Positions 7,632 to 28,300 of a stretch of DNA of 64,000 bases are shown here, in pieces (the first letter of the stretch is position 1; each line of letters begins with the position of its first letter). The notes beneath the pieces are model-generated. The model had not been told where the DNA came from. It ran no database searches and worked only from the letters and a program-made list of their open reading frames with translations. This stretch comes from a virus (Duplodnaviria > Heunggongvirae > Uroviricota > Caudoviricetes): IMG/VR virus record IMGVR_UViG_3300046689_000419; one strand, written 5' to 3'. A program made the position numbers and the translations under genes.

Positions 7632-9524
7632 ATGGCTGACGTGAGACTGCCCCAGGGCGACATCTCCACCTGGGACGAGGACAACGCTGGGGATGAGGTC
7701 CCCAAGAACGTCGGCCCGATGACCGAGCTCGGTGTCACCGGGGTCAAGCGGGTCTCCGGGTACATCGATGAGGAGTTCCTGCCGGCGCTGCGCGGCCGCA
7801 AGGCGGTCCGGGTCTACCGGGAGATGGCGGCCAACGACTCGATGGTCGGCGCGATGCTGTTCAGCATCGACAAGCTGATCCGCGAGGTGGAGTGGAAGGT
7901 GCTGCCCGCCGACCAGTCCGAGGAGAACCTGCTGGCCCAGGAGTTCCTCGAGTCGAACATGGAGGACATGAACGAGCCCTGGGACGGGTTCATCGGCGAG
8001 GTGCTCTCCGAGCTCACCTACGGCTGGTCCTGGCACGAGATCGTCTACAAGCGCCGGCTGGGCCCCTGGCAGAAGGACCCGACCAAGCGCTCCAAGCACA
8101 GCGACGGGCTGATCGGCTGGCGGAAGATGCCGATCCGCGCCCAGGAGACCCTGATGCGCTGGTCCTTCGATGAGACCGGCGGGATCCGGGCGATGATCCA
8201 GATGGCCCCGCCCCGGTACCAGACCACGGTGATCCCGATCGAGAAGTCGATCCTGTTCCGGACCGCGATCGCCAAGGGCAACCCGGAGGGCCAGTCGCTG
8301 CTGCGCACCGCCTACCGGTCCTGGTACTTCAAGAAGCGCCTGGAGGAGTTCGAGGCGATCGGCGTGGAGCGGGACCTGGCCGGGATGCCGGTGGGCCGGG
8401 TGCCCGCCGACTACCTGACCGCGGCCAAGGGCACCCCGCAGGCGAAGACCGTGGACGCCTTCCGGAAGATGGTCCGTGGGGTGCGCCGGGACGAGAACGA
8501 GGGCCTGGTGCTGCCCACCCAGTACGACCCGGACACCAAGCAGCCGCTCTTCGACTTCGAGCTGATGAGCTCGGGAGGCACCCGGCAGTTCGACACCAAC
8601 TCGATCATCCAGCGCTACGAGCAGCGGATCCTGATGAGCGTGCTGGCCGACTTCATCATGGTCGGGCACCAGGACACCGGCTCCTACTCGCTGCACACCG
8701 ACAAGACCGGGATCTTCCGGGCCGCGCTGAACGCGATCACCAAGGGCATCGCGGACACCCTGAACCGGTACGCGGTGCCCCGGCTGTTCGCGGTGAACGG
8801 CTGGAAGCTCGATCAGCTGCCCCGGTTCGAGCCGACCAACGTGGACCCGCCGGCGCTGGACCAGCTGGCCGCGTTCATCTCGGCCACCGCTGGGGCCGGC
8901 ATGCAGTGGTTCCCGGACCCGGAACTGGAGAAGTACGTCCGGGAGATCGCCCGGCTCCCGGAGATGACGGATGAGGACATCGACTACAAGCGGGCGATGC
9001 TCGAGCAGCAGCAGGCGATGGAGTTCGCCGGTGGCCAGATGGAGATGCTCGGGATGAAGCAGAAGGCGGAGATGACCGCCCAGGGCTTCTCCCCGGAGCA
9101 GGCCCAGATGCACTCCGAGCAGCCCACCGCCGAAATGCAGCAGCAGTACGCGGTGGACGGGGCGACCTCCGAGCAGGAGGCCGAGGCGGCCCGGCGGCTG
9201 CACCCGGTGGGTCAGGCCGACCAGGCGGACGCGCAGATGCAGATGCAGATCGAGCAGAGCCGGGAGGAGATGAAGAACGCTCCGCCGCCGGCAGACCCGA
9301 ACGAGGACAAGCGGGCGCGCCGTGATCAGGTCAAGGCCGACCAGCAGGAGAAGTACGCTGCGACCGGACACAAGCGGGAGACCGAGAAGATGAAGCTCGC
9401 CGACCAGCTGGCCGAGCGCAAGCACAAGCGGGACATCGGGGTGCTGCGGGAGAAGAAGAAGCAGATCGGCCGGCCGGACCGGCGGCAGCCACCGCCGAAG
9501 AAGACTCCACCGAAGGGGAAGTGA
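7632..9524 (+). CDS. Portal protein with a long charged C-terminal extension
   Basis: 630 aa following the terminase; the C-terminal ~150 aa is K/R/E/Q-rich. Confidence 0.75.
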   Translation: MADVRLPQGDISTWDEDNAGDEVPKNVGPMTELGVTGVKRVSGYIDEEFLPALRGRKAVRVYREMAANDSMVGAMLFSIDKLIREVEWKVLPADQSEENLLAQEFLESNMEDMNEPWDGFIGEVLSELTYGWSWHEIVYKRRLGPWQKDPTKRSKHSDGLIGWRKMPIRAQETLMRWSFDETGGIRAMIQMAPPRYQTTVIPIEKSILFRTAIAKGNPEGQSLLRTAYRSWYFKKRLEEFEAIGVERDLAGMPVGRVPADYLTAAKGTPQAKTVDAFRKMVRGVRRDENEGLVLPTQYDPDTKQPLFDFELMSSGGTRQFDTNSIIQRYEQRILMSVLADFIMVGHQDTGSYSLHTDKTGIFRAALNAITKGIADTLNRYAVPRLFAVNGWKLDQLPRFEPTNVDPPALDQLAAFISATAGAGMQWFPDPELEKYVREIARLPEMTDEDIDYKRAMLEQQQAMEFAGGQMEMLGMKQKAEMTAQGFSPEQAQMHSEQPTAEMQQQYAVDGATSEQEAEAARRLHPVGQADQADAQMQMQIEQSREEMKNAPPPADPNEDKRARRDQVKADQQEKYAATGHKRETEKMKLADQLAERKHKRDIGVLREKKKQIGRPDRRQPPPKKTPPKGK

Positions 9525-9525
9525 G

Positions 9526-12500
9526 ATGCCCTACGCGAGCAAGGCACAGCGGGGCTACCTGCACGCCCACCCGGAGATCACCGACAAGAAGGGCCACCCG
9601 GTTGCGGCTAAGTGGGACGCCGAGATCCACGCCGCCAAGAAGCGGAAGGTCCGCAAGAACCGGAGCGATGGCTGGCTGAAGCCGGTGGTGGCCGGCACCC
9701 TGGCCGGTGGGCTGGCCAACCAGTTCCCGCGGGTCCAGGACGTGGAGCGGTCGCGGAAGAAGAAGAGGAAGGGCGTGGCCAAGCGGCTGGACGCCCCGAC
9801 CTGGCCGGACGACGGGTTCTTCAACGCCAAGGCGGCTCAGCAGGCCTACGACCTGGTGATGAAGATGGACCTGGACTCGGCTCAGATGTTCACCACGATG
9901 GTGGTCTCGAACGCGCTGGAGACCGACATCGAGGCCAACCGGCACACCCTGCAGAAGCACCTGGACGAGGTGATCGAGTACCGGCTGGCCGACCTGAAGC
10001 GGGCCACCATCCGGGTGGTGGGCAAGTCAGGAGCCTCGTCCGAGGGCGACTCGCAGGAGCAGATCGACTTCGCCACCGCGGTCGCCCGAGTGGAGGCGAT
10101 CTGCAAGTCCGGCCCGGTCAGCAAGGTCCTGACCCCGCAGGACTACGGCTGGGTGTTCCGGGAGGACCAGATCCGCCGGGACCCGGGCAGTGGGCAGTTC
10201 CAGACCAAGGTCAAGCACACCCAGAAGCAGCCGATCCAGGACAAGGTGGCCAGCTCGATGGGGATCGTGCCGCACCCGGTGGGGCAGGGTCCGGACAAGA
10301 AGAACCGGTTCACCACGGCGCAGAAGGCTCAGTACCAGGACGAGTACCGACAGCTGGCCAACTTCCTGGGCTCGGTGGCTCAGTCCACCCCGAACTCCGG
10401 GGACACCAAGATCGACCTGCACTTCGAGGACAAGAACGGCAACCAGTGGATCGAGCCGGCCCGCAGCACCCGGCCCGAGGCGATGATGCTGGACCCCCGG
10501 GACCGGACCCTGCGCGGGATCACCGCCGCTCCGAGCAGCCTGAACGTGGGCGGGATGGCCTTCGGGCTGGCTGGTGCGCTGGGTGGTGGGATGTCCCCGC
10601 AGCGGGTCGCCCAGGTCAACGCCGGCGCGGCGGAGATGCCGACGTTCGCGCAGTCCTGGACCCAGCGGTACAGCGACACCGACACCAACGCCCGGCTCTA
10701 CGGTCGGATGTCGGCCGGCGGGAAGTTCCTCGCCCAGGTCGCCCCGGCCGGCTCGAAGGCGAATCTGGCCGGGCACTTCGGCAACTTCGTGGGCGAGTAC
10801 GGGCCGCAGGCCGAGGCAGTGATCGGGCCGACCGCGCGCAAGACCGCCTACCGGTACCGGGGCACCGAGAAGACCCCGGACCCGACGATGGTGCGCGACT
10901 ACGAGGTCGCGGTGCGCAACGCGATGTCCCAGCGCGGCTTCGATGAGGACGCGACCAAGGCCACCAAGGTCGCCCAGAACCGGGCGGTCCGGGCCAAGAT
11001 CAACCAGGTCGCGGAGGAGACCAACACCCCGGTCGATGCGGTCAAGCTCACCAACGAGCAGCGGGTCGAGGCGCTGAACTCGGCGAAGAGGACCGTCGCG
11101 GCAGCCGGTGCCAGCACCAGTCCGACCTGGGAGGAGCAGAGCGTCGCGTCCTCGGCGATCATGAACTACCTGCGCGCGATCCCCGAGAAGGGCGGCACGG
11201 CTCCGAGGAAGGGCCTGTACAACCTGCAGCTGGCGGCCGGGAACACCCCGCCGTCCGAGGGCGTGATCCTGGACCGGGACGGCCGGATCGTCACCCAGGC
11301 GGTCGGCTACGGCGACGACCACTACCTGCCGTTCAACCTGAAGAACCTCAAGGGTCTGAAGGGCGGCTCCTACATCCGGAACCGCTCGGTGGGCGGGCTG
11401 ACCAGCGAGGACATCTACACCGGGCTGGTCACCGGGGCCCGGCGGGTCACCGTGGTCTCGAGGTCGGGCACCTTCACGATGGAGTTCGAGCCGGACTTCC
11501 GGGGTGGGCGTCGGCACAACGACAAGGCGAAGCGGATGACCCAGCGCTACGAGCAGCTGCTGGACGCCGTGCAGTCCGAGCAGGTGGAGCGTCAGGGCAT
11601 CGATCCGGAGATGCGCGAGGTGATCACCCAGAAGGTCAAGGCGCGGGCTGCGCAGTTCCCCAATGCCTTCACCGGGAGGGAGATCCGGGAGGAGATCAAG
11701 AGGAAGGAAGAGGAGTACAAGGCCAGCCCGGACCTCGATGACACGTTCGATGAGTACATCCACATGATCGTGAACAACCGGACCGTCGGTCTGAACGAAC
11801 CGGACCGCAAGGCGATCGAGGCCACGGTGCGGAACCAGCAGGCCAAGGAGAAGGAGTACAAGTTCCGGCTGAACGGGGCCGGCTATGCCGACGCCCTGGA
11901 GGGTCTGCGCGAGCAGTTCCCCTACTACATCAAGGTCAACTCGGTGCCGACCAAGGACCCGGAGCGGCATGAGACCGAGCGGGACCAGGGCTACGTGGAG
12001 CCTGGCCGGTTGCGGCCCACCGAGGCCACCGTCGGCCTGTTCGGGTCCCAGCGGGTGAACAGGTACTCCGGGAAGGGCAGCAAGATCTCCGCGGCCGAGG
12101 CGAACTACGCCAAGCCGTTCATCGCCGAGCGGCGGGCCGCGACTGCAGCTCCGGAGACCACCGAGACGACCGAGACGCCGGCGGCCACTCCGGCTGCCCC
12201 AGCCGACACTCCGGCTGCCGCAGGGGCCACCCCGGCGGCCACTTCGGCTCCGACCACGGTCGGCGAGGCCCTGGAGCAGGCCACCTACGAGGACAAGGCG
12301 ACCGAGCTGCAGCAGCAGATCCAGCTCCACCTCAACCTGAAGAACGACCCGGATGCGGTGAAGTGGCACGGTCTGGGCCCGGCAGAGTTCCGAGGGTTCC
12401 TGCAGAACAAGGACAACCTGGCCGACTTCGATCTCTACGTGACCCAGCGCGCGGCCGAGATGCTCGCCTTGAGGCCCCAGCTCCGCGAGCCGCTGAACGG

Positions 12501-13284
12501 CTACACCCAGGCCTCCGGCCGGCTGGGCCAGAAGCCGTACGAGCGGATCCTGGGCGAGCAGTGGCTCCCGAAGCCGTACGCCTTCCCGGATGGCGGCAAG
12601 GCCTACCAGGCCGGGGCGGATGACGCGACCCGGCACACCGAGATGGAGCGGATCGGGGCGGGCCGACCGGGCATCGTCAACGTGAAGCCGCTCGCCCAGA
12701 TGACCGACAGGGAGCTCGAGCAGGAGGTGATCGCGGTCGGTCAGGTCCGGCGGGCACTCTCCGGTCTGACCAACCCCACCATGGAGCAGAAGACCGAGGC
12801 CATGAAGGCTGCCCTGAAGGGCGTGAACACGACCTCGCCGAGCATGGGCGTGCTCGCCACCGCCGACACGATGGACGCCTACCTGGAGACGGTGCACCGG
12901 ACCCGGGCGGTCAACATCGGGGTGCCGGACGCCGAGCGGGGCTGGCAGGTGGAGCACACCGAGAACCCGCTCCCACCGGAGCAGGCCGCTGCCGAGCAGG
13001 AGGATGTCGGGGACCGGCGCGAGCGGCTGGTCTACCTGGCCGAGAAGACGGCGGCGCTGCACCCGGCGGACTCCGAGGAGTACAAGAAGCTGACCCAGCT
13101 CAAACTGGACCTGGAGATGCAGGCGGACCGGATCCGGACTCCCAAGGCGCTGGAGGGGGTGCAGGCCACCAACAAGGACGCCCTCGACATGATCATGCAG
13201 GCGCTGCACGAGGGCAAGGTCAACCAGTACGAGCCGGCCCCTCGGAAGCCGCCCTCGCTGCCGCCGGGTAGCTCCTCGTCATGA
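9526..13284 (+). CDS. Giant head-module protein (1252 aa), function unknown; candidate internal virion / ejection protein
   Basis: Continuous 3759-nt ORF, overlapping-stop coupled to the portal and MuF genes; contains a Thr/Pro/Ala linker and basic N-terminus; the antisense 1060-aa ORF is an artefact. Confidence 0.7.
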   Translation: MPYASKAQRGYLHAHPEITDKKGHPVAAKWDAEIHAAKKRKVRKNRSDGWLKPVVAGTLAGGLANQFPRVQDVERSRKKKRKGVAKRLDAPTWPDDGFFNAKAAQQAYDLVMKMDLDSAQMFTTMVVSNALETDIEANRHTLQKHLDEVIEYRLADLKRATIRVVGKSGASSEGDSQEQIDFATAVARVEAICKSGPVSKVLTPQDYGWVFREDQIRRDPGSGQFQTKVKHTQKQPIQDKVASSMGIVPHPVGQGPDKKNRFTTAQKAQYQDEYRQLANFLGSVAQSTPNSGDTKIDLHFEDKNGNQWIEPARSTRPEAMMLDPRDRTLRGITAAPSSLNVGGMAFGLAGALGGGMSPQRVAQVNAGAAEMPTFAQSWTQRYSDTDTNARLYGRMSAGGKFLAQVAPAGSKANLAGHFGNFVGEYGPQAEAVIGPTARKTAYRYRGTEKTPDPTMVRDYEVAVRNAMSQRGFDEDATKATKVAQNRAVRAKINQVAEETNTPVDAVKLTNEQRVEALNSAKRTVAAAGASTSPTWEEQSVASSAIMNYLRAIPEKGGTAPRKGLYNLQLAAGNTPPSEGVILDRDGRIVTQAVGYGDDHYLPFNLKNLKGLKGGSYIRNRSVGGLTSEDIYTGLVTGARRVTVVSRSGTFTMEFEPDFRGGRRHNDKAKRMTQRYEQLLDAVQSEQVERQGIDPEMREVITQKVKARAAQFPNAFTGREIREEIKRKEEEYKASPDLDDTFDEYIHMIVNNRTVGLNEPDRKAIEATVRNQQAKEKEYKFRLNGAGYADALEGLREQFPYYIKVNSVPTKDPERHETERDQGYVEPGRLRPTEATVGLFGSQRVNRYSGKGSKISAAEANYAKPFIAERRAATAAPETTETTETPAATPAAPADTPAAAGATPAATSAPTTVGEALEQATYEDKATELQQQIQLHLNLKNDPDAVKWHGLGPAEFRGFLQNKDNLADFDLYVTQRAAEMLALRPQLREPLNGYTQASGRLGQKPYERILGEQWLPKPYAFPDGGKAYQAGADDATRHTEMERIGAGRPGIVNVKPLAQMTDRELEQEVIAVGQVRRALSGLTNPTMEQKTEAMKAALKGVNTTSPSMGVLATADTMDAYLETVHRTRAVNIGVPDAERGWQVEHTENPLPPEQAAAEQEDVGDRRERLVYLAEKTAALHPADSEEYKKLTQLKLDLEMQADRIRTPKALEGVQATNKDALDMIMQALHEGKVNQYEPAPRKPPSLPPGSSSS

Positions 13285-15449
13285 CCACGGTGCCGGTCCA
13301 CCCGACCCCGGCGGTCGAGCTCCGGTTCCATCCCACCGACCTGGATGCGGAGACGCTGCGGACCGCGCTCAAGCCGCTGGGCTCGCCGTCCGAGGCGATC
13401 GAGGCCGCGCTGATGACCGCCCGGCTGATGGTGATCACCCAGGCCAAGGCCGAGGTGGCCGCGATGACTGGGGAGATGAGTGCGGCCAAGCTGATCGGGT
13501 TCGCGGACCTGGCCTGGCAGATCTACGCGCCCAAGTTCGTCCGGTCCCTGGGGCCGGTGTTCGCCGAGCAGTACCTGCACGCGATGAAGGCGGCCGGGGC
13601 CGGGGACATCCCGATGGCCACCGTGTACGCGCTGGCCGAGCAGCACGCCAGCCGGGTCGGCACCTACTACCACGAGTCCTCCCGGGACGCGCTGGCCCAG
13701 GGGTTCAACACCTTCGTGAACCGGCGGATCACCGAGCGGGTGGCTGCCGACCGGGTGCTGGACGGCTACGGGCTGACCGGCCGGGGGATGTCCGGGTACA
13801 CCTCCAGGAGCCTGGACAAGGCCGCCACGGTCACCCCGCTGCGGCTCAAGGAGCGGGTGCTGGACTACATCGGCACCTCGGTGCGCCGGCGCTCGAAGGT
13901 GTTCGCCACCCAGGAGCAGCACAACATCAGCCAGCAGGCCCAGCAGATCGCCTGGATGTGGCTGCAGGACCACGGCAAGATCTCGCCGAACAGCCAGAAG
14001 ATCTGGATCACCGCCCGGGACGAGAGGGTCTGCCCGCAGTGCGGCCCGATGCATGGGGTCAAGGTGCTGCTCGGCGAGCGGTTCAAGCTGCCCAACGGCA
14101 CCGAGGTCTGGGTGCCCGGGATGCATCCGAACTGCCGGTGTCAGGTCCGGCTGCTCAGCCACCCGTGGATGGCCGAGGTGGGCAAGGCGCACTCCTCGTT
14201 CGGGGTGATCGCCAAGGCGGACGAGTGGAACCCCACCCTGCACCCGCGCGGCGGCGACCCGGTGAACCCGGGCCGGTTCAGCGCCAGGGCCCGCACTGCG
14301 CGCCAGCCGGAGGTGGCCGAGAAGGAGCCGGTGGACACCACGAAGATCCAGGAGATGCTGGACGCGGCCGAGCACCAGCGGGCCCTGGAGGCGGTGCTGG
14401 ATCCGCCGATCGAGCCGAAGGCCACCCTGGAGCCCAGAGAGACGAGGGCCACTCTGGAACCCAGAGAGCCGAGGGCCACTCTGGCCTCATCGGTGAAGGC
14501 CACCCTGGCCAGCCGGGTCACTCCGGAGAGGCCCACCCTGGCCGCCCCGGAGAAGCCAGAGCTGGGCCAGCGGAGCCAGGCCGTCCTGCCTACCCGGGAG
14601 AAGGCGCAACTGCGGGTTCCGGAGCAGGCCTGGCTGGGGCAGGCCGAGCAGGCGTTCCTGCGCTATGACCAGCGGACCAAGCGCGTCCCACGGGTCCCGG
14701 AGCCGAACAAGCGTCGCAGGCGGAAGACCGTCCCGATCCTGGATGCCCAGGGCAAGCCGATCCCGGTCTACTACGTCGCCAGCAGGTTCGAGATGGACGA
14801 GAGCGGCTACATCGAGCCGCACGACGAGATGGAGTTCACCGCCGATCGGCAGACGGCGGTCATCATGGCCCAGCAGGTGTTCGATCAGGAGATCAACGAC
14901 ACCGCCGAGTCGATCAACGACAACGCGGAGAACAAGATCACCCAGGTCTTCGGGGACGGCCGGAAGTTCGAGGCGACCATCGATGAGGACGAGACCTACA
15001 GCGTGGTGGGCTGGGCGGCCTACCAGGACCAGATCACGGACCCGGACTGGACCGGCGACCGGAGCATCAAGGTGCTCTGGCGGGAGGTGGACGCCGACGA
15101 CATGCCGGTCGAGGACGGCGAGGAGTACGCGGACTCGGTGCGGATCTCCGATGTCGCCGAGGAGTGGCACCTGGATGCGGATCGCTTCGCGGTCAAGGTG
15201 CTGGTGCTCACCGAGGGCCACAAGTCCGAGCGCGGCAACACCTGGCAAGCCAACTTCAAGGACAGGCACGGCTACGACTCCTGGATCACCACCGGGCGAT
15301 ACAAGATGAACGACGTGCTTCAAGATCGAGAGGACCGCCCGGATCCGGTGCAGTTCGCGGAGCTGGAGCCCGATGACCCGGTGATCGTGGATGAGGACGA
15401 GCCGGGCGTCGGCTGGTCACCTGAGCATGGGCCTACCGAATGGCTGTAG
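13281..15449 (+). CDS. MuF-like / SPP1 gp7-like minor head protein with extended repeat-containing C-terminus
   Basis: 'CPQCGPMHG...HPNCRCQV' signature of the MuF/gp7 head-morphogenesis domain; 'ATLEPRE' peptide repeats near 14400-14560. Confidence 0.7.
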   Translation: MTTVPVHPTPAVELRFHPTDLDAETLRTALKPLGSPSEAIEAALMTARLMVITQAKAEVAAMTGEMSAAKLIGFADLAWQIYAPKFVRSLGPVFAEQYLHAMKAAGAGDIPMATVYALAEQHASRVGTYYHESSRDALAQGFNTFVNRRITERVAADRVLDGYGLTGRGMSGYTSRSLDKAATVTPLRLKERVLDYIGTSVRRRSKVFATQEQHNISQQAQQIAWMWLQDHGKISPNSQKIWITARDERVCPQCGPMHGVKVLLGERFKLPNGTEVWVPGMHPNCRCQVRLLSHPWMAEVGKAHSSFGVIAKADEWNPTLHPRGGDPVNPGRFSARARTARQPEVAEKEPVDTTKIQEMLDAAEHQRALEAVLDPPIEPKATLEPRETRATLEPREPRATLASSVKATLASRVTPERPTLAAPEKPELGQRSQAVLPTREKAQLRVPEQAWLGQAEQAFLRYDQRTKRVPRVPEPNKRRRRKTVPILDAQGKPIPVYYVASRFEMDESGYIEPHDEMEFTADRQTAVIMAQQVFDQEINDTAESINDNAENKITQVFGDGRKFEATIDEDETYSVVGWAAYQDQITDPDWTGDRSIKVLWREVDADDMPVEDGEEYADSVRISDVAEEWHLDADRFAVKVLVLTEGHKSERGNTWQANFKDRHGYDSWITTGRYKMNDVLQDREDRPDPVQFAELEPDDPVIVDEDEPGVGWSPEHGPTEWL

Positions 15450-15471
15450 ACCGGACAAGGATCATGAAGAT

Positions 15472-16512
15472 ATGAGCGCGGGCCGCGAGAACGACCAGAC
15501 CTTCCGCGAGGTAGCCGAACTGCTGTTCGGCGATGGTGCCGACTTGATCACCAAGATGAACCCCACCCAGTCCGACCTGGCCACCCACGATCGGAAGAAG
15601 CGCGCAGTGACGGCCGGGCTGAGCGCGATCGGGGCCACCGCCGGCGCGGCCGGCCTGGGCTACGCCGCGCATAAGACCGGCGGAGCCTACCGCGCCGCGC
15701 GGGCCGGGGTGCAGGGCGTGAAGGCGGCCAAGGGCGTCCGAGGGGTGAAGGCCGTCGAGCCGATGGGCCGACGGGCAGCGGCCGGGCACGCGATCAAGCA
15801 GGAGAAGCTCGGAGCGGCGCTGGTGCCGCTGGAGATGGCTGGGCTGGGCGGCGAGGTGATGGCCACCCGGATCCTGCACGGGGACACCAAGCGTGGGGTC
15901 AAGAAGGACATCGGTGAGATGTCCGAGATGGCGACCTCCAACCCGAAGCGGGCGATGACCCGGGCCGCGATCACCAACGCGCCGCGGGCGGCCGGCAAGG
16001 GCCTGGAGTACTCCAAGGTGGCGAACGGCAAGCTGAAGAAGCTCCCGGACCAGGTGGCCACCACCAAGAAGAAGGCGGAGAGGTTCGGCAAGCGCGCCGA
16101 GGAGGTGGACGTGATCTGGTCCGGCACCTTCGCCAAGGCGAACCTGGACAAGCAGCAGCTGTTCGGCTGGGCCAGCGTGGTCGAGGTGAACGGCGAGCCG
16201 GTGGTGGACCTGCAGGGTGACGTGATCAGCCCGGAGGAGATGGAGAAGGCTGGCTACTCCTACGTGATGAAGTCCCGCAAGGGCGGCGACATGCACCTGC
16301 GGGACAACTGGAGCCCGATCCAGAAGTCCGAGATGATCGAGTCGTTCATCGTCACCGACGAGAAGCGGGCCGCGATGGGGCTGCCGGACTCGGTGCCGAC
16401 CGGTTGGTGGGTCGGCTTCCAGGTCCAGGACCCGGAGGTCTGGGCCAAGGTGAAGTCCGGTGAGCGAACCGGGTTCTCCATCCACGGCACCGGACGACGG
16501 AGTGCGGGCTGA
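15472..16512 (+). CDS. Putative prohead protease / head maturation protein
   Basis: 346 aa between MuF and scaffold; the C-terminal half resembles phage serine protease regions; assignment is tentative. Confidence 0.4.
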   Translation: MSAGRENDQTFREVAELLFGDGADLITKMNPTQSDLATHDRKKRAVTAGLSAIGATAGAAGLGYAAHKTGGAYRAARAGVQGVKAAKGVRGVKAVEPMGRRAAAGHAIKQEKLGAALVPLEMAGLGGEVMATRILHGDTKRGVKKDIGEMSEMATSNPKRAMTRAAITNAPRAAGKGLEYSKVANGKLKKLPDQVATTKKKAERFGKRAEEVDVIWSGTFAKANLDKQQLFGWASVVEVNGEPVVDLQGDVISPEEMEKAGYSYVMKSRKGGDMHLRDNWSPIQKSEMIESFIVTDEKRAAMGLPDSVPTGWWVGFQVQDPEVWAKVKSGERTGFSIHGTGRRSAG

Positions 16513-17225
16513 TGGCGACCAAGAAGAAGCAGGAGACCGGGACCGCGAACCTGGTGGCCGGTGGCGGGCTGACCGCCTATGGTGCGGCCACCGCGCCGGT
16601 GCTCCGGGCCGGGCACAAGGACATGTCCCGGATGAGCAGTGCCTCCCCGAAGAAGCAGGGGGCGCGCTACCAGGCCGAGCTGCATGGGGCGATGGCGCGC
16701 GGCAAGGTCAAGACCGACAGCCCGGTGCACGTGCTGCGGACTCCCTCGGGTCGGCACCTCAATGCTGGCGGTACCCACCGGCAGATCGCCCGGGAGGTGA
16801 TGGGCAAGCCGAGCGAGTATCAGGTCAAGGACATCTCCCACGAGATCCACGTCTCACCGGCCACCAAGGTGGCCGGCAAGCTGCGGGTCGCTGGGCTGAA
16901 GCGGGGCTCCAAGCGGGCGGAGGCGGGCAAGCCGCTCAAGCCGGTCAGCGAGAACGCGCGCGGAACGAACGCGATCAAGTCCATGCGCGCCGATGCCGCT
17001 GATGCCCACATCTGGTCGCACCCTTCGGTGCTGAAGGAGCCGGCCAAGATCGGCCGCAAGGCGGGCCTGGCCGGTGCCGGGATGATCGCCGGGATGGGTG
17101 CCCTGACGATGGCGGGCGGCCTCCACCAGCGCAAGGAGTACCAGAAGACCCACCCGGTCCGTAAGAGCTCGGTCTCCGGGGGTGCGCTTTCAGCGTTCGG
17201 TGTGGACCACGGGTACGTCAGATGA
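16512..17225 (+). CDS. Basic Gly/Ala/Lys-rich protein ending in SAFGVDHG motif
   Basis: ATGA overlap; 237 aa; C-terminus '...GGALSAFGVDHGYVR'. Confidence 0.5.
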   Translation: MATKKKQETGTANLVAGGGLTAYGAATAPVLRAGHKDMSRMSSASPKKQGARYQAELHGAMARGKVKTDSPVHVLRTPSGRHLNAGGTHRQIAREVMGKPSEYQVKDISHEIHVSPATKVAGKLRVAGLKRGSKRAEAGKPLKPVSENARGTNAIKSMRADAADAHIWSHPSVLKEPAKIGRKAGLAGAGMIAGMGALTMAGGLHQRKEYQKTHPVRKSSVSGGALSAFGVDHGYVR

Positions 17226-18133
17226 CCTTCTCCAAGCGGGTGATGTCCGAGACCGAGCTGCGGCACCGGCGCAAGGTGCAGGGCAACATCGGCCGGACCA
17301 CCTCCACTATGGGCCTGACTGGGCTCGGGATGACCGGGGCCGCGCTGGCGGCCCGGAAGTCCCCGGGCGCGCTGAAGGCGATCCAGAAGATCCCGAAGGT
17401 CGGGGCCAAGCTCGGCAAGACCCCGGAGGAGGTCTCCGGCAAGCTGAAGGGCGCGGCGATCAACACCGGCCTGGTCTCTGGTGGCATCGGCGGCGTCGGC
17501 GGGTTCAACCAGGCCTCCATCTACTCCGACGAGGCGAAGCGGAAGAAGCCAGTGATCAAGCGCGGAGCGCCCACCGGACTGACCGAAGACATGGCCTGGG
17601 TCGGCGAGGTGGGGTTCGCCAAGGACTGGAAGCCGAGCGCCTCTACCCACGACTCCGAGCGGTCCCGGCTGAAGCGGGCCCAGGCGTATGAGGATGTCGG
17701 CGGCGTGGCCGCCGGAGGACTGGGTGCCGGGGCCGCGGTGAAGGGGGCTCAGGCGCTGAAGACGGTGGCCCCGAACTGGCAGAAGGGCCAGCGCAAGGCC
17801 AAGCACCTGCCCACCGTGAAGACCGCGCAGGCGGCCAGGAAGGCGAAGGCGGTCTCGCACGGGAAGGTCGGCGCGGGCCTGCTGATCGCCTCCGGGGCAG
17901 CCGGTGCGGCCACCCTGGGGGTGAAGAACCGGAACCAGTCCCGGTCCTGGGCCCCGTACGCGAAACGGGACTCGACCTCAGCGTTCGGGGTGGACCACGA
18001 GGTGAGCAAGGCCAAGAAGGTGCCGAACACCAAGTTCGACACGCTGGTCTCCGGGTTCCGTCGCCGGACCGGTCGCAACGCCGCCGGCAAGCTGATCCCG
18101 GTAGCGGCCAAGGTCGCCAGAGCAGCGCGATGA
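17222..18133 (+). CDS. Basic Gly/Ala/Lys-rich protein containing SAFGVDHE motif
   Basis: 303 aa; 'STSAFGVDHEVSKAKKVPN' near the C-terminus is homologous to the N-terminus of the 22207 gene. Confidence 0.5.
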   Translation: MTFSKRVMSETELRHRRKVQGNIGRTTSTMGLTGLGMTGAALAARKSPGALKAIQKIPKVGAKLGKTPEEVSGKLKGAAINTGLVSGGIGGVGGFNQASIYSDEAKRKKPVIKRGAPTGLTEDMAWVGEVGFAKDWKPSASTHDSERSRLKRAQAYEDVGGVAAGGLGAGAAVKGAQALKTVAPNWQKGQRKAKHLPTVKTAQAARKAKAVSHGKVGAGLLIASGAAGAATLGVKNRNQSRSWAPYAKRDSTSAFGVDHEVSKAKKVPNTKFDTLVSGFRRRTGRNAAGKLIPVAAKVARAAR

Positions 18134-18181
18134 GGGACCTAGTGGACAGCACCGTGAGACTGAGAACTAGAGGTAGATGAG

Positions 18182-18988
18182 ATGCCACGACGGAACAACC
18201 TGACCGACATGGAGATCGATGAGATCTCCACCGTGGACAAGACCGCGAACCAGCTCTCGAGGTTCGTCATCGCAAAGCGGGCTCCCGAGGAGGAAGACAT
18301 GCCCCAGCTCTACAACCAGGAGGGTAAGCCCCTCGATGAGAACGACCTCGAGTTCGGCGACATCGTGTTCGATGAGCAGGGCCAGGCGTACGAGTACGTC
18401 GAAGAGGGTGAGGAGCACGAAGAGCGTGAGGAGGAGGGCGAGCTAGTCGAGGCCGGCAAGTCGGCGTTCTTCCAGCCTCCGCAGAACTCCGGCAGCTTCT
18501 CCAAGCAGGTGATGGAGGAGCTCTCCAAGGCGTTCAGCGACGAGGACCGGGACCAGGTGTTCGCCAAGGCGCTCGGTCGGGTCGAGGAGCTCGAGAAGGC
18601 CCAGCAGGCCGCCGAGCGTATCGCCAAGTCCGAGCGGGACCTGCGGCTGACCCGGGAGTACGTGGCGAAGTCCGCCGAGTACAACCTGCCGGTGGACCCG
18701 AACGAGCTCGGCCCGGTGCTCTACCGGATGGCCGAGACGATGAGCTACGACGACTGCGCGGTGATCGCGAAGTGCCTGGAGTCGGCCGGCAACATCCTCT
18801 TCGAGGAGGTCGGCTACCAGGGTGGCGGCGACAACAACGACATCTACTCCCAGGTCGAGGCGCACGCCCACGACACGTTCGGCAAGGCCGAGGACTTCAA
18901 CGAGGTCTCGGCGATCAACAAGGTGTTCGACATGAACCCGGACGCATACGACGAGTACCTGGCCGCGCAGCGGCTCAACGGTCGATAG
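18182..18988 (+). CDS. Scaffolding protein (acidic, coiled-coil)
   Basis: 268 aa, acidic, helical, positioned upstream of the capsid gene. Confidence 0.55.
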   Translation: MPRRNNLTDMEIDEISTVDKTANQLSRFVIAKRAPEEEDMPQLYNQEGKPLDENDLEFGDIVFDEQGQAYEYVEEGEEHEEREEEGELVEAGKSAFFQPPQNSGSFSKQVMEELSKAFSDEDRDQVFAKALGRVEELEKAQQAAERIAKSERDLRLTREYVAKSAEYNLPVDPNELGPVLYRMAETMSYDDCAVIAKCLESAGNILFEEVGYQGGGDNNDIYSQVEAHAHDTFGKAEDFNEVSAINKVFDMNPDAYDEYLAAQRLNGR

Positions 18989-19001
18989 GAGGGAGTGACA
19001 G

Positions 19002-19403
19002 ATGGCCTACGAAGAGAGCCTCCGGTCGATCACGCTGAACGCGGATTCGTCCCTGGGCATCTACACCGGGGTGCCTGGTCAGCCGGGTTCCCCGGACCCG
19101 CACGGAGGCAGGCAGTACCACTTCGTGAAGGTGACCGGTGTGCACCAGGTCGGTCTCGGTGACGGCACCGGACCCTGCATCGGGGTGATGCAGAACAAGC
19201 CCCAGGGCACCGGCCAGGCTGCCACGGTAGCCATCGCCGGGGTCTCAAAGGTGGTCTCGGATGCGCCGATCACCGCCGGAGCCAAGATCCAGGTGAGCGC
19301 GGACGGCCAGGCCACCAGTGCCGGGGCCACCGCGATCGTCGGCATTGCCCTGTCCACCACCGCCAACGCCGGAGAACTCGTCAACGTTCTCCTGACGATC
19401 TGA
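19002..19403 (+). CDS. Putative head decoration / capsid accessory protein
   Basis: 133 aa, Gly/Ala-rich beta-type protein immediately upstream of the major capsid gene; RBS GGAGGGAG. Confidence 0.4.
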   Translation: MAYEESLRSITLNADSSLGIYTGVPGQPGSPDPHGGRQYHFVKVTGVHQVGLGDGTGPCIGVMQNKPQGTGQAATVAIAGVSKVVSDAPITAGAKIQVSADGQATSAGATAIVGIALSTTANAGELVNVLLTI

Positions 19404-19416
19404 GAGGAGAGAAGCC

Positions 19417-20415
19417 ATGCCGAACCCCACTCAGAGCGATCTCCACGTCAACGTTCCGCTGACCAATGTCTCGGTCGCCTACATGCAGGACAAGGCGACG
19501 TTCATCGCCGACAAGGTGTTCGCTCGAGTCCCGGTGAACAAGCAGTCCGACATCTACTGGAAGTACTCGAAGTCCGACTGGCGTCGGACCGACGCGCAGA
19601 AGCGTGCGCCGGGCACCGAGTCGGCCGGGGTCGGCTGGAAGCTCGACACCGGTCAGTACTTCGCCGAGGTCTGGGCTGTCCACAAGGACATCGATGACCA
19701 GGTGCGGGCGAACGCGGACAGCAACTGGCGACTGGACAGCGACGCCACCGCGTTCGTGACCAACCAGCTGCTGCTGCGCCGGGACCTGGACTGGAACGAC
19801 AAGTTCTTCAAGACCGGCCAGTGGGGCACCGACCTCGCCGGCGTCACCGGGACCGTAGGCGCGGGCCAGTTCCTGCAGTGGAGCGACCCGAACTCCGACC
19901 CGATCGTGCAGTTCACCGACCTGCAGACCAACTTCGTGGAGCAGTCCGGCCGCAAGGCCAACACCCTGGTCCTCGGAGCCCGGACGATCAACCAGCTCAA
20001 GAACCACCCGGACATCATCGACCGCATCAAGTACACCCAGAAGGGTGTGGTCACCACCGACCTGCTCGCGTCCCTGTTCGACGTGGAGCGGATCCTGGTC
20101 TCCTACGCGACGGTGACCGACGTGGCCGAGCTCAACGACGCGAAGGCACAGGATGCCGCCGCGACGTACCGGTTCATGTCCAACTCGAAGTCGGCGCTGC
20201 TCTGCTACACCCCGAGCAGCCCGTCCCTGATGACCCCGGCCGCCGGCTACACGTTCACCTGGAACGGGTACCTGGCCGGCAACGCCTTCGGGATCCGGAT
20301 GAAGAACTTCCGGATGGAGTGGATCGAGGCGGACCGGATCGAGGGCGAGATGACCTACGACATGCGGGTGGTCGCGAAGGACATGGGCATCTTCATGGCC
20401 AACGCGGTGGCCTGA
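19417..20415 (+). CDS. Major capsid protein
   Basis: 332 aa; strong RBS GAGGAGAGAAG; position after scaffold/decoration and sequence character of phage major capsid proteins. Confidence 0.75.
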   Translation: MPNPTQSDLHVNVPLTNVSVAYMQDKATFIADKVFARVPVNKQSDIYWKYSKSDWRRTDAQKRAPGTESAGVGWKLDTGQYFAEVWAVHKDIDDQVRANADSNWRLDSDATAFVTNQLLLRRDLDWNDKFFKTGQWGTDLAGVTGTVGAGQFLQWSDPNSDPIVQFTDLQTNFVEQSGRKANTLVLGARTINQLKNHPDIIDRIKYTQKGVVTTDLLASLFDVERILVSYATVTDVAELNDAKAQDAAATYRFMSNSKSALLCYTPSSPSLMTPAAGYTFTWNGYLAGNAFGIRMKNFRMEWIEADRIEGEMTYDMRVVAKDMGIFMANAVA

Positions 20416-20480
20416 GTCGGATCTACCCTTGGATGGGCTGTGGGTGCTGGCCCGCAGCCCATCCGTCGTCAGGAGGAGTG

Positions 20481-21011
20481 ATGGGCAGCCCGCTGCTGTA
20501 CAACGACAGGGTGTCCTTCGTGGTCACCAAGCCGTTCACCTCGGGCGAGAAGGAGTACGCCGTCGGCGACGACTTCCCCCAGGAGGACGCCCGGAACATC
20601 GAGGTGCTGGTCCGAGCCCGGTACGTGGCCCCGGTGGTGGAGGATCTCGCCGACCGGCCGAAGTACTGGTACAAGGAGGTCCGGCTCAAGTCCGACGTGC
20701 TGGCCCGGCTGAACCGGGAGCACGTCCAGGTGCGGATGCCGGAGCCCTACGCCGAGCACGACGAGAACCAGGTGGATCTCCAGGTGCTCACCCACCCGGC
20801 GACCACTCCGGAGCCGGAGGACCGCGAGGTCGGTGAGGATGAGGAGGCCCCGCCGGCCGAGGCGGTGCATCTGGATCAGTACGACCCGAGCTACCACTCG
20901 GTGCGCGAGGTGAACGCACACCTGGCTCAGATCCATGATCCGGAGGAGAAGGAGCGGGTGCTCGAGGCGGAGCGCAGCGGCAAGGCACGGAAGGGGATCC
21001 TGGAGTCATGA
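20481..21011 (+). CDS. Hypothetical structural protein (acidic C-terminus)
   Basis: RBS AGGAGGAG; 176 aa. Confidence 0.5.
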   Translation: MGSPLLYNDRVSFVVTKPFTSGEKEYAVGDDFPQEDARNIEVLVRARYVAPVVEDLADRPKYWYKEVRLKSDVLARLNREHVQVRMPEPYAEHDENQVDLQVLTHPATTPEPEDREVGEDEEAPPAEAVHLDQYDPSYHSVREVNAHLAQIHDPEEKERVLEAERSGKARKGILES

Positions 21012-21256
21012 TCAGTGCATTCGGTGTGGACCACGGCGGCATCGAGAAGGCGTTCAACCCGGTGAAGGCGCTCAAGGGCCTGCGCAGCGCGAAGGGTGGT
21101 GCGCATGCCGGTCAGGCCAGCCCGACGTTCGACCAGCTGGCAGCCAAGACCGGGATGAAGACTGGCGGAGCCCACCGGGCACCCGGGTCGCACAAGGGCT
21201 CGCTCAAGGCGAAGTCGTTCAACCCGTTCGGCCGCGGCGGGGCGCGGAGGGCCTGA
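21008..21256 (+). CDS. Small basic protein, N-terminus MISAFGVDHG
   Basis: ATGA overlap; 82 aa; paralogue of the next gene ('NPVKALKG...GAHRAPG'). Confidence 0.5.
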   Translation: MISAFGVDHGGIEKAFNPVKALKGLRSAKGGAHAGQASPTFDQLAAKTGMKTGGAHRAPGSHKGSLKAKSFNPFGRGGARRA

Positions 21257-21702
21257 TGTACAGCGAGGGTGGGCTTTCAGCCTTCGGCATCGACCATGGC
21301 TACGAAGAGGTCGGGAAGTTCGTCAACCCGATGGAGGCCATGAAGGGTGCCCGAGGGGCGGTCAAGGCCGCCACCGCTGGCGCACACCGGGCCCCTGGCC
21401 TGTCGTCGGTGTCCAAGCCGGTCGGCGCGCTGCGCACCTTCACCGGCGGAGTCGGGGCGAACATCTCCGGCGGCCTGAAGCGGGCCGGAGCCGCGGTCAC
21501 CGGGAACCCGGGCAAGCGGGCGGCCCCAACCCTGCGGACCAAGGTCGGCGGCGGGCTGACCAGCCTGGGCCAGAAGTCCTTCGCGCAGCCGTACAAGACC
21601 GGAGCCATCGGCCTGGGTGCCGCCGGTGCCGGAGCAGGCGCAGTCGGCGCAGGTGGCGCGGCAGCATTCGGCGGTCGGAGGAAGCGCCCCGGGCAGGTCT
21701 GA
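21256..21702 (+). CDS. Basic Gly/Ala-rich protein, N-terminus ...LSAFGIDHG
   Basis: ATGA overlap; 148 aa; tandem paralogue of 21008-21256. Confidence 0.5.
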   Translation: MYSEGGLSAFGIDHGYEEVGKFVNPMEAMKGARGAVKAATAGAHRAPGLSSVSKPVGALRTFTGGVGANISGGLKRAGAAVTGNPGKRAAPTLRTKVGGGLTSLGQKSFAQPYKTGAIGLGAAGAGAGAVGAGGAAAFGGRRKRPGQV

Positions 21703-21703
21703 G

Positions 21704-22210
21704 ATGACCTACTCCTACACGGTCCCTGGGGACACCGACAAGGACACCTTGCGGTTCCTGATCCAGGACACCGGGCCCTCCCAGGAGAACGACTGGATGC
21801 TCACCGACGAGGAGATCCAGTGGGCCTACGAGACCTGGTTCCCGCTCTACCACTCGCTGTACTACGTGGCCGCGACGCTGGCCGACACCATCTCGGCCCG
21901 GTTCGCGAACGAGGCGTCCTACTCCGCCGATGGGGTCAGCGTGAACCTGGGCCCGGTCGGGGACCAGTACCGGTCACTGGCCATGAAGCTGCGTGAGCAG
22001 TACTCCGCGCAGCTGGTCGGCACCACCGTCGATGCCGGTGGGATGAGCCCGGACGAGCCGCAGCTGCCCGGCACCAAGCCGTTCTCCTTCGGCAAGGGCA
22101 TGCACGACAACGTGGAGGCCGGTCCGCAGGAGTTCGGCGGGGTCTACCCACCGGACCAGACGACCTACCCGGCGGCGGTGCCCCCGCACGAGCAGATCGT
22201 TGAGCCATGA
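21704..22210 (+). CDS. Head-tail adaptor / connector protein
   Basis: 168 aa in the connector position; overlapping-stop coupled. Confidence 0.45.
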   Translation: MTYSYTVPGDTDKDTLRFLIQDTGPSQENDWMLTDEEIQWAYETWFPLYHSLYYVAATLADTISARFANEASYSADGVSVNLGPVGDQYRSLAMKLREQYSAQLVGTTVDAGGMSPDEPQLPGTKPFSFGKGMHDNVEAGPQEFGGVYPPDQTTYPAAVPPHEQIVEP

Positions 22211-22569
22211 TCAGCGCCTTCGGCGTCGAGCACGGGGTCTCCAAGTCCTGGAAGAAGCTCGCCCCGAAGCTGGCCAAGGTCCAGCAGACGCCCCGGCGGA
22301 CCGATGACATCCAGCAGCGGATGAAGGTGAACTACTACCAGGGGCGGGCCAGAGGAGCGGCTCGCTCCAAGGCCTACCAGGCTAATGTCCGTGGGTTGAA
22401 GCAGCGCCAGGCCCAGCCCGAGGGCACCCCTCTGCGGGACTACCGGATCGGTCGGAACATCGAGGACCGGGACAAGGCTCTCAAAGAGGGGAAGTTCTAC
22501 AAGGACTTCGCCAACGCTGCGATCGCCGGGCACTCCAACGCGGGGAAGAGGAAGAGGTTCCTGCCGTGA
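22207..22569 (+). CDS. Basic protein, N-terminus MISAFGVEHG
   Basis: 120 aa, K/R-rich, third N-terminal copy of the SAFG motif. Confidence 0.5.
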   Translation: MISAFGVEHGVSKSWKKLAPKLAKVQQTPRRTDDIQQRMKVNYYQGRARGAARSKAYQANVRGLKQRQAQPEGTPLRDYRIGRNIEDRDKALKEGKFYKDFANAAIAGHSNAGKRKRFLP

Positions 22570-25361: not shown

Positions 25362-28300
25362 GTGACCAGTCAGCCGGTTGAGGCCAATGTCGTACTGACC
25401 GCGGACAACAGCGGCTACGACCAAGCGATGGCGGCAAGCTCGCAGGCCACCACCACCTTGATGAGCTCGGTGGACGCGCTGACCGCCAAGATCGGCAAGC
25501 TGACCAAGACCGCCGGCAAGTCCCTGATCGGGATCGCCGCGGGTGACGTGGCGATGATCACCGGAGCCACCGCGGCCTGGTCCTCGTATGAGAAGCAGAT
25601 GGAGCGGCTCAAGTCCCAGGCCGCGGTGCTCGGCCGGTCCACCGATCAGCAGAACAAGCTGATGAAGGACTACAGCAACACGGTGAAGGGCCTGCGTTCG
25701 GAGTTCGGTACCACCACCACCGAGGCCGCGAAGCTGGCGGAGACGCTCTCCAAGGTCACCAACGTCCGGCAGAGCCGGGACCTGGGTGAGCTGTCCAAGG
25801 TCTTCATCCAGATGTCCAAGGCCACCGGGGAGAGCTCGGAGGGGCTGGCCAGCTCGCTGACCAACCTCGAGAAGATCATGGGCACCCCGGTGAACGCCCA
25901 GAACTCCAGGAAGTACGCAGACACCTTCACCCACCTGGCCGCGCAGACCAACGTCTCGGCGCAGGGCCTGATGGACTTCACCGCCACGCTGGCCCCGGTC
26001 GCCAAGTCGCTGGGGATGAACACCAAGCAGGTGGCCGGCTTCGCCACCGCCTTCACCCAGGCGGGTCAGGACACCGGGGCCGCGTCGTTGATGTTCACCA
26101 AGGTCAGCCGGGACATGCTGCGGTCCCTGCAGTCCGGCTCACCGGAGCTGGCGACGTACGCGAACATCGTCGGGACCACCACCGAGAACTTCAAGAAGCT
26201 GGCGAAGAGCGACGCCTCGGAGGCCGTGATCCGGGTCTTCGAGGCGCTCAGCCGCAACACCAAGACCGCGAGCGCGGACATCGAGCGGCTGGGTCTGGAC
26301 GGGCCGCGCACGATCCGGGCGATCGCCGGGCTGACCAACCAGCCTGGTGGCATCCGGGCGGCAGCGGGGCTGGTGAACGACCCGAGCGCCACGGGGTCGG
26401 TCGAGCGCGGCTACAAGGCCACCCTGAGTGGGCTGTCCAACCAGTTCGATGAGCTGCGCGAGGACCTGAAGCAGACCGCCGAGGCGTTCGCCACCATCCT
26501 CGGCCCGGCGATGGAGGGCTTCCTGGCCGGCCTGGAGAAGGCCGCCTCGATCATGCAGTCGGTGGTGCAGGGCCCGATCGGCAAGTTCCTGCAGGTGGTG
26601 ATGGGCCTGGTGGCTCCGCTGGCCGGCGGGGCCGGTGCGCTGCTGCTGTTCGCCGGCGCGCTAGTCAAGGTGGCCGGGGCGTTCCTGCTGCTGAAGAACT
26701 CGATGACCCGGGGCCTGGTCGAGGGCTTCCAGGGCAAGGCCGGGATCATCCGGTCTCCCGAGGGCGTCTATATGGCCCGCGGTGGCGGCACGCTCGGCAA
26801 GACCGGCGCGAACCTGGTCCGGGGCACCGACCCGAACCTGCCCCGTGAGGAGCAGAGCAGCTGGGTGCAGCGCGGGCTGTACAACATCGGCCAGTTCGGC
26901 GGCTCCGGGCTGAGCGCGTTCCGGTCCGGTGGGGCGGTCCCGGAGCACTGGTACGAGGCCCGGGAGGCGCTGTCCTCGAAGATCCCGTGGACCCAGCAGT
27001 ACGCCCGGCCGGACGCCCCACGGTCCGCGCTGAGCGCGGTGTCTCGGGGCGCGGGCGCGCTGATCGAGAACTTCGTCACCCCGACCTTCGACCAGATGCG
27101 GCATGCCGGGCCGTCCCAGCGCAGGACCTGGGCGGCCCAGGAGGCTCCCTGGGTTCGGGCCGGCGACGCGATGGAGATGGGGGCCGGCAGGGTCAAGCTG
27201 ATCCCCGGCCTGGCCGCGGCGATGGGCCGGGTCGGGATGGCCGACACCCGGCTGCAGGCTCAGCGCGAAGAGACCACCAGGGTCCACCAGGACCCGCTGA
27301 TGGACGAGCAGTCCCGGCAGGCCCGGCTGACCGAGCTGCGCGGCATGCGCGAGGAGACCATGCAGCGGAAGAACGCTGCCCTGGCGCAGGAGACCGCGAT
27401 CCGCCAGGAGATCGCCCAGCGCGGTGAGTCGGCCCGGGTCACCGCGGAGGCCAACCGGGAGACCAAGACCTTCGGCCAGGCGATGCGGGGCCTGGGCGGG
27501 GCGGTGGGTGGCTCGCTGCTGACCGGCGGCAAGGACGTGGCCAGGCTGGCCTGGCGGTCCGGGATGGTCGGCCAGGCCGGGGCGATGGGGGCCGCGGTCG
27601 CCGGTGGGGCGATGGGCTCCAACATGCTGATGATGGGCGGCACCGGCGCGATGATCGGCAGCATGATCCCTGGGGTCGGGACTGCCCTGGGAGGTGCAGT
27701 CGGGGCCACCGCCGGGCTGGCGATGGATGCGGCCAAGGCCAACAACGACGTGACCGACTCGATCAAGGAGCTGAACCAGCAGGCCACCGACGCCGGCAAG
27801 TCCGGCAGTGGGCTGGCCGCGCTGGCCGAGGCCACTGATCAGTCCAAGAAGAAGTTCCAGGACTACAACAAGTCGATGACCGCCCTGCGGCAGCCGGGCC
27901 TCTCGCCGCTCCAGTCGATCACCACCGGCTACGGCCAGGCGAAGAACTTTGTCGAGGGGCTTCTCGGGGACTCGGACGTGGAGGAGCAAGCGAAGAAGCT
28001 GAATGTCACCGCGGACAAGGCCCGGAACGTCGCGGACGCCTTCCGGGACCTGGCCAAGGCAGGTGGGGTCAAGCTCACCGGGTCCGCTACCGCGCAGCGT
28101 CAGCAACTGGACGAGTTCATGGCCAGCCGAGGCCTGCCCGCACTGGGCCAGGCGAACATCGAGCTGCCGGACCTGATCGCGGCCCGGGCGAAGGGCGGCC
28201 CGCAGTACCAGGACATGCTCGACAAGGCGATCACCCCGGGCAAGGCCACCGGGATGTGGGACCGGATGCGCACCACCCAGGTCGGCGCGGCGATGCTGGA

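Follow-up and report, generated by a model that had tools for sequence, protein, structure and literature searches.

The window analysed here is the whole 64,000-nucleotide stretch of the IMG/VR record IMGVR_UViG_3300046689_000419, a tailed-phage genome (Caudoviricetes) with a G+C content of about 67%; the same phage is present on at least 24 metagenomic contigs, the longest of 81 kb. The plus strand of the window carries a head module of the Mu/SPP1 type, in which a heptapeptide, SAFG[VI][DE]H (the tag), recurs in basic proteins. Six-frame translation of the window gave exactly five copies, all on the plus strand and all in the head module (17190-17210, 17978-17998, 21014-21034, 21277-21297 and 22213-22233). 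A degenerate DNA pattern for the peptide matched seven times, comprising the five tags and two off-frame near-matches, where 0.2 matches were expected by chance. A profile built from the N-terminal tags of related phages matched just the five tagged open reading frames (ORFs) among the 665 ORFs of the six-frame translation, with E-values of 7e-12 to 2e-5 and a next best match at E = 6. The motif that a preliminary description of this DNA had reported in five proteins is therefore real. None of the five proteins had a match in Pfam, PHROG or NCBIfam. The strings SAFGVDH, SAFGVEH and SAFGIDH were found in no paper of the searchable literature, where the matches to SAFGV were all unrelated.

Two of the tagged genes, both on the plus strand, carry the tag towards the 3′ end, at the places first described for them. 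The gene at 16512..17225 (G+C content at third codon positions, GC3, 0.89) encodes a basic protein of 237 amino acids (aa) with an isoelectric point (pI) of 10.7, in which the tag (17190-17210) is followed by GYVR and the stop codon; orthologues from loci L012, L017 and L036, 65-70% identical, retain the C-terminal tag. The gene at 17222..18133 encodes a basic protein of 303 aa, helical in an AlphaFold2 (AF2) model, in which the tag (17978-17998) is followed by a 44-aa tail starting EVSKAKK. In 37 of the 40 members of this protein family the tag comes after ...SW.PYAKRD...; all 10 members with at least 44 residues beyond the tag continue with x(V/I)(S/E)K, as N-terminal tags do, and short tails almost never show this continuation. 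The 303-aa protein thus looks, from its sequence, like a C-tagged body joined to a module of the N-tagged type. Homology of its tail to free N-tagged proteins past the tag was considered as well and was unsupported by composition-adjusted BLASTP.

The remaining three genes, also on the plus strand, carry the tag at or close to the N-terminus. An 82-aa protein with a pI of 11.5 and the tag at residues 3-9 (MISAFGVDHGGIEKAF; gene at 21008..21256, tag DNA 21014-21034) starts at an ATG that overlaps the upstream stop codon (ATGA). Its neighbour and paralogue of 148 aa (21256..21702; pI 11.1, 41% Gly+Ala) has the tag at residues 8-14 (21277-21297); it starts MYSEGGLSAFG where its orthologues start MYSAFG, the tag being shifted to residue 8 by a 5-residue insertion. 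The third, of 120 aa (22207..22569; pI 10.8), has the tag at residues 3-9 (MISAFGVEHGVSKSW; 22213-22233) and ends ...RFLP. The tag had been placed at the extreme N-terminus of all three, which holds for the genes at 21008 and 22207 and is slightly overstated for that at 21256. JGI and Logan, calling genes independently on identical contigs, arrived at the same models for the 82-, 148- and 120-aa genes, and the GC3 of all five tagged ORFs (0.86-0.91) was similar to that of neighbouring genes. The five proteins proved as basic as originally stated, with pI values of 10.7-11.5 and 21-41% Gly+Ala. Homology of the sequence flanking the tag, claimed for two pairs, extends past the tag in the 82- and 148-aa paralogues (E = 3e-8); the likeness of the 303- and 120-aa proteins is limited to an extended tag, SAFGV(D/E)HxVSKxxK. 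The structure prediction that had been proposed for the basic proteins was run on two of them and gave low-confidence models: for the 303-aa protein, long helices with an unstructured tag region (predicted local distance difference test, pLDDT, 64), and for the 82-aa protein, a largely disordered chain in which the tag had no secondary structure (pLDDT 57, predicted template modelling score 0.19). As a side observation, the N-tagged proteins of the slot occupied by the 120-aa gene, which follows the connector gene, share the C-terminus (R/K)xLP, and their stop codons overlap the GTG start of the next gene.

Relatives were collected from IMG/VR through the major capsid protein and yielded 201 tag copies, 154 of them non-redundant. 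Codon differences between copies, already remarked upon for the window, extend to the non-redundant set, in which all six Ser codons (AGY and TCN) were used and the third positions of the Gly, Ala and Val codons were near random. Selection thus acts on the tag as a peptide and not on the DNA. In alignments of the tagged proteins the tag columns alone were invariant, at a mean column identity of 12-19%. On this evidence the tag is a portable short linear peptide, neither a fold nor a DNA element.

By position, 145 of the 201 copies were N-terminal, 40 lay within 20 residues of the stop codon and 16 were classed as internal; roughly half of these 16 proved to be N-terminal copies whose leader is longer or whose start codon is GTG, leaving some seven that were truly internal. 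The N-terminal form reads M-x-S-A-F-G-(V/I)-(D/E)-H-G-x(1-3)-(I/V)-(S/E)-K-(A/G), with a large residue (E, I, Y, L or Q) in the place of the first x. Among 107 non-redundant N-terminal copies, Met stood two residues ahead of Ser in 89 and Gly followed His in 98, and the sixth position of the tag was Asp in 77 and Glu in 30. A Shine-Dalgarno-like sequence was usually found upstream of the N-tagged genes, the starts of which often overlap the preceding stop codon. The C-terminal form consists of a basic stretch (often ...PYAKRDxx or ...KK), the heptapeptide and 0-19 further residues; 6 of the 33 non-redundant C-terminal copies end exactly ...SAFGVEH, and 8 have one residue more. A third arrangement was seen in the 399-aa protein P0108, which is made up of four modules that each open with the tag, with Lys before the internal copies. 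At least nine further proteins carry two tags, the second of which, where it has no Met of its own, usually follows Lys; one of these, P0188, is encoded directly after an XkdF protease gene. Separate genes with terminal tags and polyproteins with tags at their junctions are thus interchangeable architectures.

A hidden Markov model (HMM) search for the motif in related phages had been suggested; the tag was present in many relatives, orthologous genes included. Most loci with a capsid protein at least about 59% identical to that of the window carried one to seven tags, and four (L045, L047, L058 and L060) carried none; loci with less similar capsid proteins had no tag, except for a variant, (S/N)AFGV(D/E)(H/V), in a sister group. 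The tag was unchanged in relatives with G+C contents of 0.49-0.69 and capsid proteins 59-97% identical to that of the window. An exhaustive profile search of 1.84 billion cluster representatives gave 611 matches at E ≤ 1e-3, that is, at least 611 clusters at 50% identity; among 224 retrieved proteins, the tag was at residue 3 or 4 in 217. None had an informative name, and Pfam, PHROG and NCBIfam offered no model. No isolated phage matched the window by near-DNA or tblastn search, and the nearest isolates, with capsid proteins 40-47% identical, have loci without the tag. A scan of genome contigs for the host returned only a distant Bacillota metagenome-assembled genome (43% identity), free of the tag. 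The tag-free locus L060 (capsid protein 59% identical, G+C 0.70) encodes homologues of the 303-aa and 120-aa families without the heptapeptide (7700-8416 and 12169-12612), one of which ends ...RRNQPYN precisely where the tag would start. The long contigs of the clade cluster at 80-83 kb, and isolates with related capsids (KPP23, RDJL, LiSara and Kovu) have 60-63 kb; charge-neutralising internal proteins might be related to the larger genome of the clade.

Tagged genes are confined to the head module. In 14 loci scanned 10 kb to either side of the capsid gene, all 62 tags lay between −5.1 and +4.9 kb of it, and in the loci examined no copy turned up beyond the head and neck genes. The tagged genes occupy variable slots between conserved genes, namely the intervals protease-scaffold, capsid-connector and terminase-portal, and the places behind the connector, the next neck gene and the portal. 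Their number, position and identity vary even where the capsid proteins of the phages compared are more than 90% identical. All 154 non-redundant tagged proteins had a pI above 7 (median about 11), with some 30% Gly+Ala and 17% Lys+Arg. Several unrelated families are represented, at least five of them in the window alone. Most of the proteins are Gly/Ala-rich and predicted to be disordered or helical, and a minority are globular; some tagged proteins reach 440-830 aa. Pfam assigns one N-tagged protein of 118 aa to the GNAT acetyltransferases (E = 2.3e-6), and five N-tagged proteins share HExxH...REE(G/A)RAD, typical of zinc peptidases by inspection and with no Pfam match. Many contain moderately hydrophobic Gly/Ala runs flanked by basic residues, with hydrophobicity peaks of 1.0-1.66; no significant match to Gly-zipper families was obtained for the five window proteins, and only one database relative matched PF13441.

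Several observations concern individual slots. N-tagged genes between terminase and portal or after the portal were found at L176 (1520-1876), L158 (2249-3793), L139 (1110-1889) and L147 (7574-8554), and such genes of relatives include the GNAT acetyltransferase and the HExxH...REE(G/A)RAD family; the window has no insertion at the first of these slots, terminase and portal being 26 nt apart. Just after the protease gene, L016 (6519-7877), L009 (6491), L046 (6936) and L049 (6243) encode N-tagged proteins of 244-830 aa with one or two RYK.G..I..D(G)NH(R) repeats, which by eye resemble the DGxHR of ParB/sulfiredoxin and have no Pfam match.

Two neighbouring genes of the head module are of particular relevance. 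The XkdF-type prohead protease (15391..16512, plus strand) has a C-terminal domain at about residues 247-370 that matches Pfam Peptidase_S78_2 (PF14550; E = 5e-17), and the His of its DMH motif and the Ser of its FSIxG motif are invariant across 47 sequences, so that a prohead protease with conserved catalytic His and Ser shares the module with the tagged genes. Its 240-aa N-terminal extension is basic and Gly/Ala-rich, of the same kind as the tagged proteins, and the enzyme is a candidate for reading or cutting the tag. An acidic scaffolding-type protein of pI 4.3 is encoded at 18182..18988 (plus strand). In an alignment of 47 scaffolds, its internal segment VGK-SAFF (18458-18472) was near-invariant in tag-bearing relatives, and it resembles the core of the tag. 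When the tag profile was compared with the scaffold, the best hhalign match was at KSAFF (weak, P = 0.027), and the HMM score was not above that of shuffled controls. Derivation of the tag from this segment was accordingly dropped as an explanation and kept as a lead only; that the scaffold is a partner of the tag, or a fellow substrate, is suggestive only. In the shorter scaffolds of L056 and L057 the equivalent segment is GKSFGDSVREELSKAL, resembling SAFGVDHGEISKAF. Residues 6-96 of the window scaffold (DMEIDEISTVDKTANQ...) align with positions 117-196 of a 381-aa PHROG, which suggests that XkdF domain and scaffold are joined in a single protein elsewhere among phages; in the window the two basic tagged genes lie between them.

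Because the heptapeptide is invariant, unstructured, always at an accessible end or junction, borne by unrelated proteins and found in head-module genes only, it is best understood as a recognition tag. On balance, we infer that it is probably a capsid-loading label that marks a variable set of strongly basic head-module proteins, an interpretation held with little more than even confidence. The exposed tag would be bound by one common procapsid component, for which the core of protease and scaffold and the interior surface of the shell are candidates. It would work at either terminus where that is free, on the N-terminal side as M-x-tag-G-x-(I/V)SK and on the C-terminal side as a K/R-rich stretch, the tag and the stop, and also between modules. 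Its bearers would thereby be enclosed in the head, as is cargo carrying the capsid-targeting sequence (CTS) of phage T4 or an encapsulin targeting peptide. The adjacent XkdF-type serine protease might then cut at the tag, with the His-Gly and Lys-Ser bonds as candidates, freeing the modules of polyproteins and removing a 9-residue N-terminal leader. Inside the head, the Gly/Ala/Lys-rich cargo could neutralise or organise the DNA or be ejected with it, and the rarer enzyme-like cargo (GNAT, HExxH) could be delivered to the host. As to the partner, such hints as there are favour the core of protease and scaffold: the gene of the protease adjoins the tagged genes, its catalytic residues are conserved, it is fused to a basic Gly/Ala module, and the scaffold contains VGK-SAFF, a likeness with weak statistical support. 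The major capsid protein is a further candidate receptor.

The preliminary description had offered three options without choosing among them: a prohead-protease processing site, an assembly or targeting tag, and a breakpoint of gene splitting or fusion. The assembly or targeting tag is the best supported by the sequences assembled here. The breakpoint is apt as a description, and it leaves the selection on the peptide unexplained. Cleavage is made plausible by the tags between the modules of polyproteins, by copies with His as their last residue and by the Gly that stands next to His. It cannot be the whole story, since the terminal copies, which are the most conserved, would then be pointless: a cleavage site two residues from the start or at the stop codon serves no purpose, which argues that recognition or binding must be the conserved function.

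Among known systems, the T4 CTS is the closest functional precedent by analogy, and encapsulin targeting peptides come second. The CTS is a short N-terminal propeptide common to diverse internal proteins, of which it is the sole conserved feature; it brings them to the scaffolding core, after which it is cut off by the prohead protease (PMC3012670, PMC7411985). A short terminal peptide on otherwise unrelated head-module proteins is likewise what was found here, on five proteins in the window and on 154 in relatives. In both systems most of the marked proteins are basic (IPI-III and Alt in T4), and the T4 accessory cargo is also diverse and fast-evolving and includes an enzyme. Unlike the CTS, which is N-terminal only, the present tag also occurs at C-termini and between modules, and T4 is a myophage whereas the window phage is a siphophage of the Mu/SPP1 type that has MuF and an XkdF protease. 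The T4 sequence, MKTYQEFIAE, bears no obvious resemblance to MxSAFGVDHG when that sequence alone is compared. Encapsulin cargo carries a terminal peptide of 8-10 residues (GSLxIGSLK) that binds a pocket on the interior of an HK97-fold shell (PMC10960027). Family 1 encapsulins resemble the present case in having a short conserved terminal peptide of alternating small and hydrophobic residues on cargo encoded beside an HK97-fold shell gene. They differ in the motif, in the mostly N-terminal place of the tag described here and in the shell, which here is that of a DNA-packaging tailed phage equipped also with a portal, a scaffold and a protease. The locus includes genes for terminase, Mu-type portal, MuF, tail tube and tape measure and is not that of an encapsulin, the shell gene of which has no portal and tail genes beside it. 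In phage P1, an N-terminal segment of DarB suffices for head loading, the cargo being anti-host proteins (PMC9024508); the Dar proteins have no consensus motif (PMC9024508), whereas one invariant heptapeptide marks all cargo here. In SPN3US and phiKZ, the prohead protease processes many head and ejection proteins at one short motif of the AXE type, and their propeptides have been proposed to target the prohead (PMC7411985). Those motifs are of 3 residues with propeptides of 60-130, in contrast to the conserved element of 7-15 residues at the extreme terminus seen here. The tag is undescribed and belongs to an uncultured clade, while functionally it falls within the theme of capsid-targeting sequences and propeptides; it is set apart by its bidirectional placement, its use at polyprotein junctions and its exclusively basic cargo.

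Other explanations were weighed against this reading. That most copies stand at gene starts or boundaries, and that fusions occur at the tag, would suit conservation at the level of the nucleic acid (a start-associated sequence, a recombination site or an RNA element), yet third positions are essentially random, Ser is encoded by both AGY and TCN, C-terminal copies lie away from gene starts and the tag survives a fall in G+C from 0.69 to 0.49; codon degeneracy rules such an element out, and we give it next to no weight. A tag that is a processing site and nothing more, cut by the XkdF-type prohead protease or a host protease, with terminal copies left over from the fission of polyproteins, is unlikely. 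It accounts well for tags at every junction of polyproteins, for the adjoining protease gene with its conserved catalytic residues, for the KSAFF of the scaffold and for C-terminal copies that stop right after His and N-terminal ones in which Gly follows, so that these residues look like P1 and P1′. Cuts 2-9 residues from the N-terminus or 0-4 from the C-terminus would be pointless on their own, however, and the terminal copies make up 185 of the 201 and are invariant over a shift of 0.2 in G+C, which argues that they are selected for recognition. The acceptance of both Asp and Glu at position 6 also sits poorly with a pure cleavage site, as does the length of the motif, which exceeds that of typical phage protease sites such as AXE in SPN3US (PMC7411985).

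The tags might instead dock with one another, for example by zippering of beta-strands, or bind the portal or neck, building one internal body or core. The presence of five to seven tagged proteins per genome in both N- and C-terminal orientations, their disordered or helical nature and the position of some of their genes beside portal and connector genes would fit, but the tag gives no sign of self-complementarity, and in some relatives (among L054-L059) there are no more than one or two tags, as would rather be expected of a fixed receptor; we regard mutual docking as distinctly improbable. We attach slightly less credence again to a tag read by the host, as a mimic of a host-protease site or as a signal by which small Gly-zipper proteins are inserted into a membrane, secreted or localised. 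Mimicry of this sort is known from staphylococcal phage 80alpha, in which the N-termini of capsid and scaffold imitate ribosomal protein L27 for the Prp protease. The Gly-zipper-like segments of the cargo and their hydrophobicity peaks lend this idea some substance, as do a database relative named SlyB by its source and the other that matches PF13441. Against it, the genes sit within the head module and are translationally coupled, no non-phage protein was among the profile matches examined, and a tag constant over hosts of very different G+C would need an equally constant host factor.

The capsid-loading reading has difficulties of its own. No cultured member of the clade was found by near-DNA or tblastn search, and the candidate partner segment of the scaffold is only weakly like the tag. 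There is no known precedent for a tag functional from both ends, and its receptor would have to accept both contexts; to our knowledge, known capsid-targeting sequences act from one terminus. Sister phage L060 has homologous basic proteins without the tag, which is thus not indispensable to their role, and the Gly-zipper-like segments of several cargo proteins could indicate a membrane role outside the capsid.

A bolder form of the capsid-loading reading is possible rather than expected, namely that the clade uses plug-in loading in which one heptapeptide, at either terminus or between modules, admits any bearer into the capsid. Moron-like genes (basic DNA-condensing proteins, GNAT, HExxH), inserted at several head-module junctions, would acquire the tag and have their products delivered with the DNA, and the XkdF protease would resolve polyproteins at the tag, which would amount to a bidirectional encapsulin-like peptide in a tailed phage. 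Should the tag be a loading signal, the internal or ejected proteome of a widespread uncultured group of soil phages could be identified from sequence alone, and the small 'hypothetical' basic genes scattered through their head modules would be explained. With a handle of 7-15 residues at either terminus, foreign proteins could be loaded into the capsids of siphophages. The concept of a common CTS, documented mainly for T4, would then reach the lineage with Mu-type portal, MuF and XkdF protease and be linked to polyprotein-like gene architectures.

The rest of the module, all on the plus strand, comprises the terminase (6104-7606), the Mu-type portal (7632-9524), an unannotated 1252-aa ORF (9526-13284) and the MuF protein (13281-15449) ahead of the protease gene. 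The 1252-aa ORF had no Pfam, PHROG or NCBIfam match; all relatives have it, at 31-67% identity, and its product may be a large protein that is internal to the head or ejected. A degenerate SSFGV directly past the MuF domain (14193..14207) was considered as a sixth tag and rejected; it is not conserved among MuF orthologues, of which only that of L009 (KSAFGIV) has any likeness there, and it may be due to chance. Between the capsid gene and the 82-aa gene lies a gene for an acidic 177-aa protein, and a 168-aa protein (21704-22210), labelled a connector in the preliminary description and so placed by position, has phrog_1732, with no assigned function, as its only family match. Neck and tail genes follow the 120-aa gene, among them that of a 1927-aa tape measure (25362-31145), in which motifs like those of M23 peptidases and lytic transglycosylases were seen by eye near the C-terminus; such motifs are common in actinobacteriophage tape-measure proteins. 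The scaffold gene is followed by that of the cement protein (19002-19403) and by the major capsid gene (19417..20415; lambda gpE-like), the anchor used for collecting relatives. Near its C-terminus the capsid protein contains a conserved GN(A/S)(F/Y)G(I/V)RMKNF, in the window GNAFGIRMKNF (20281-20295), which has AFG(I/V) in common with the tag; this likeness could be chance or mimicry.

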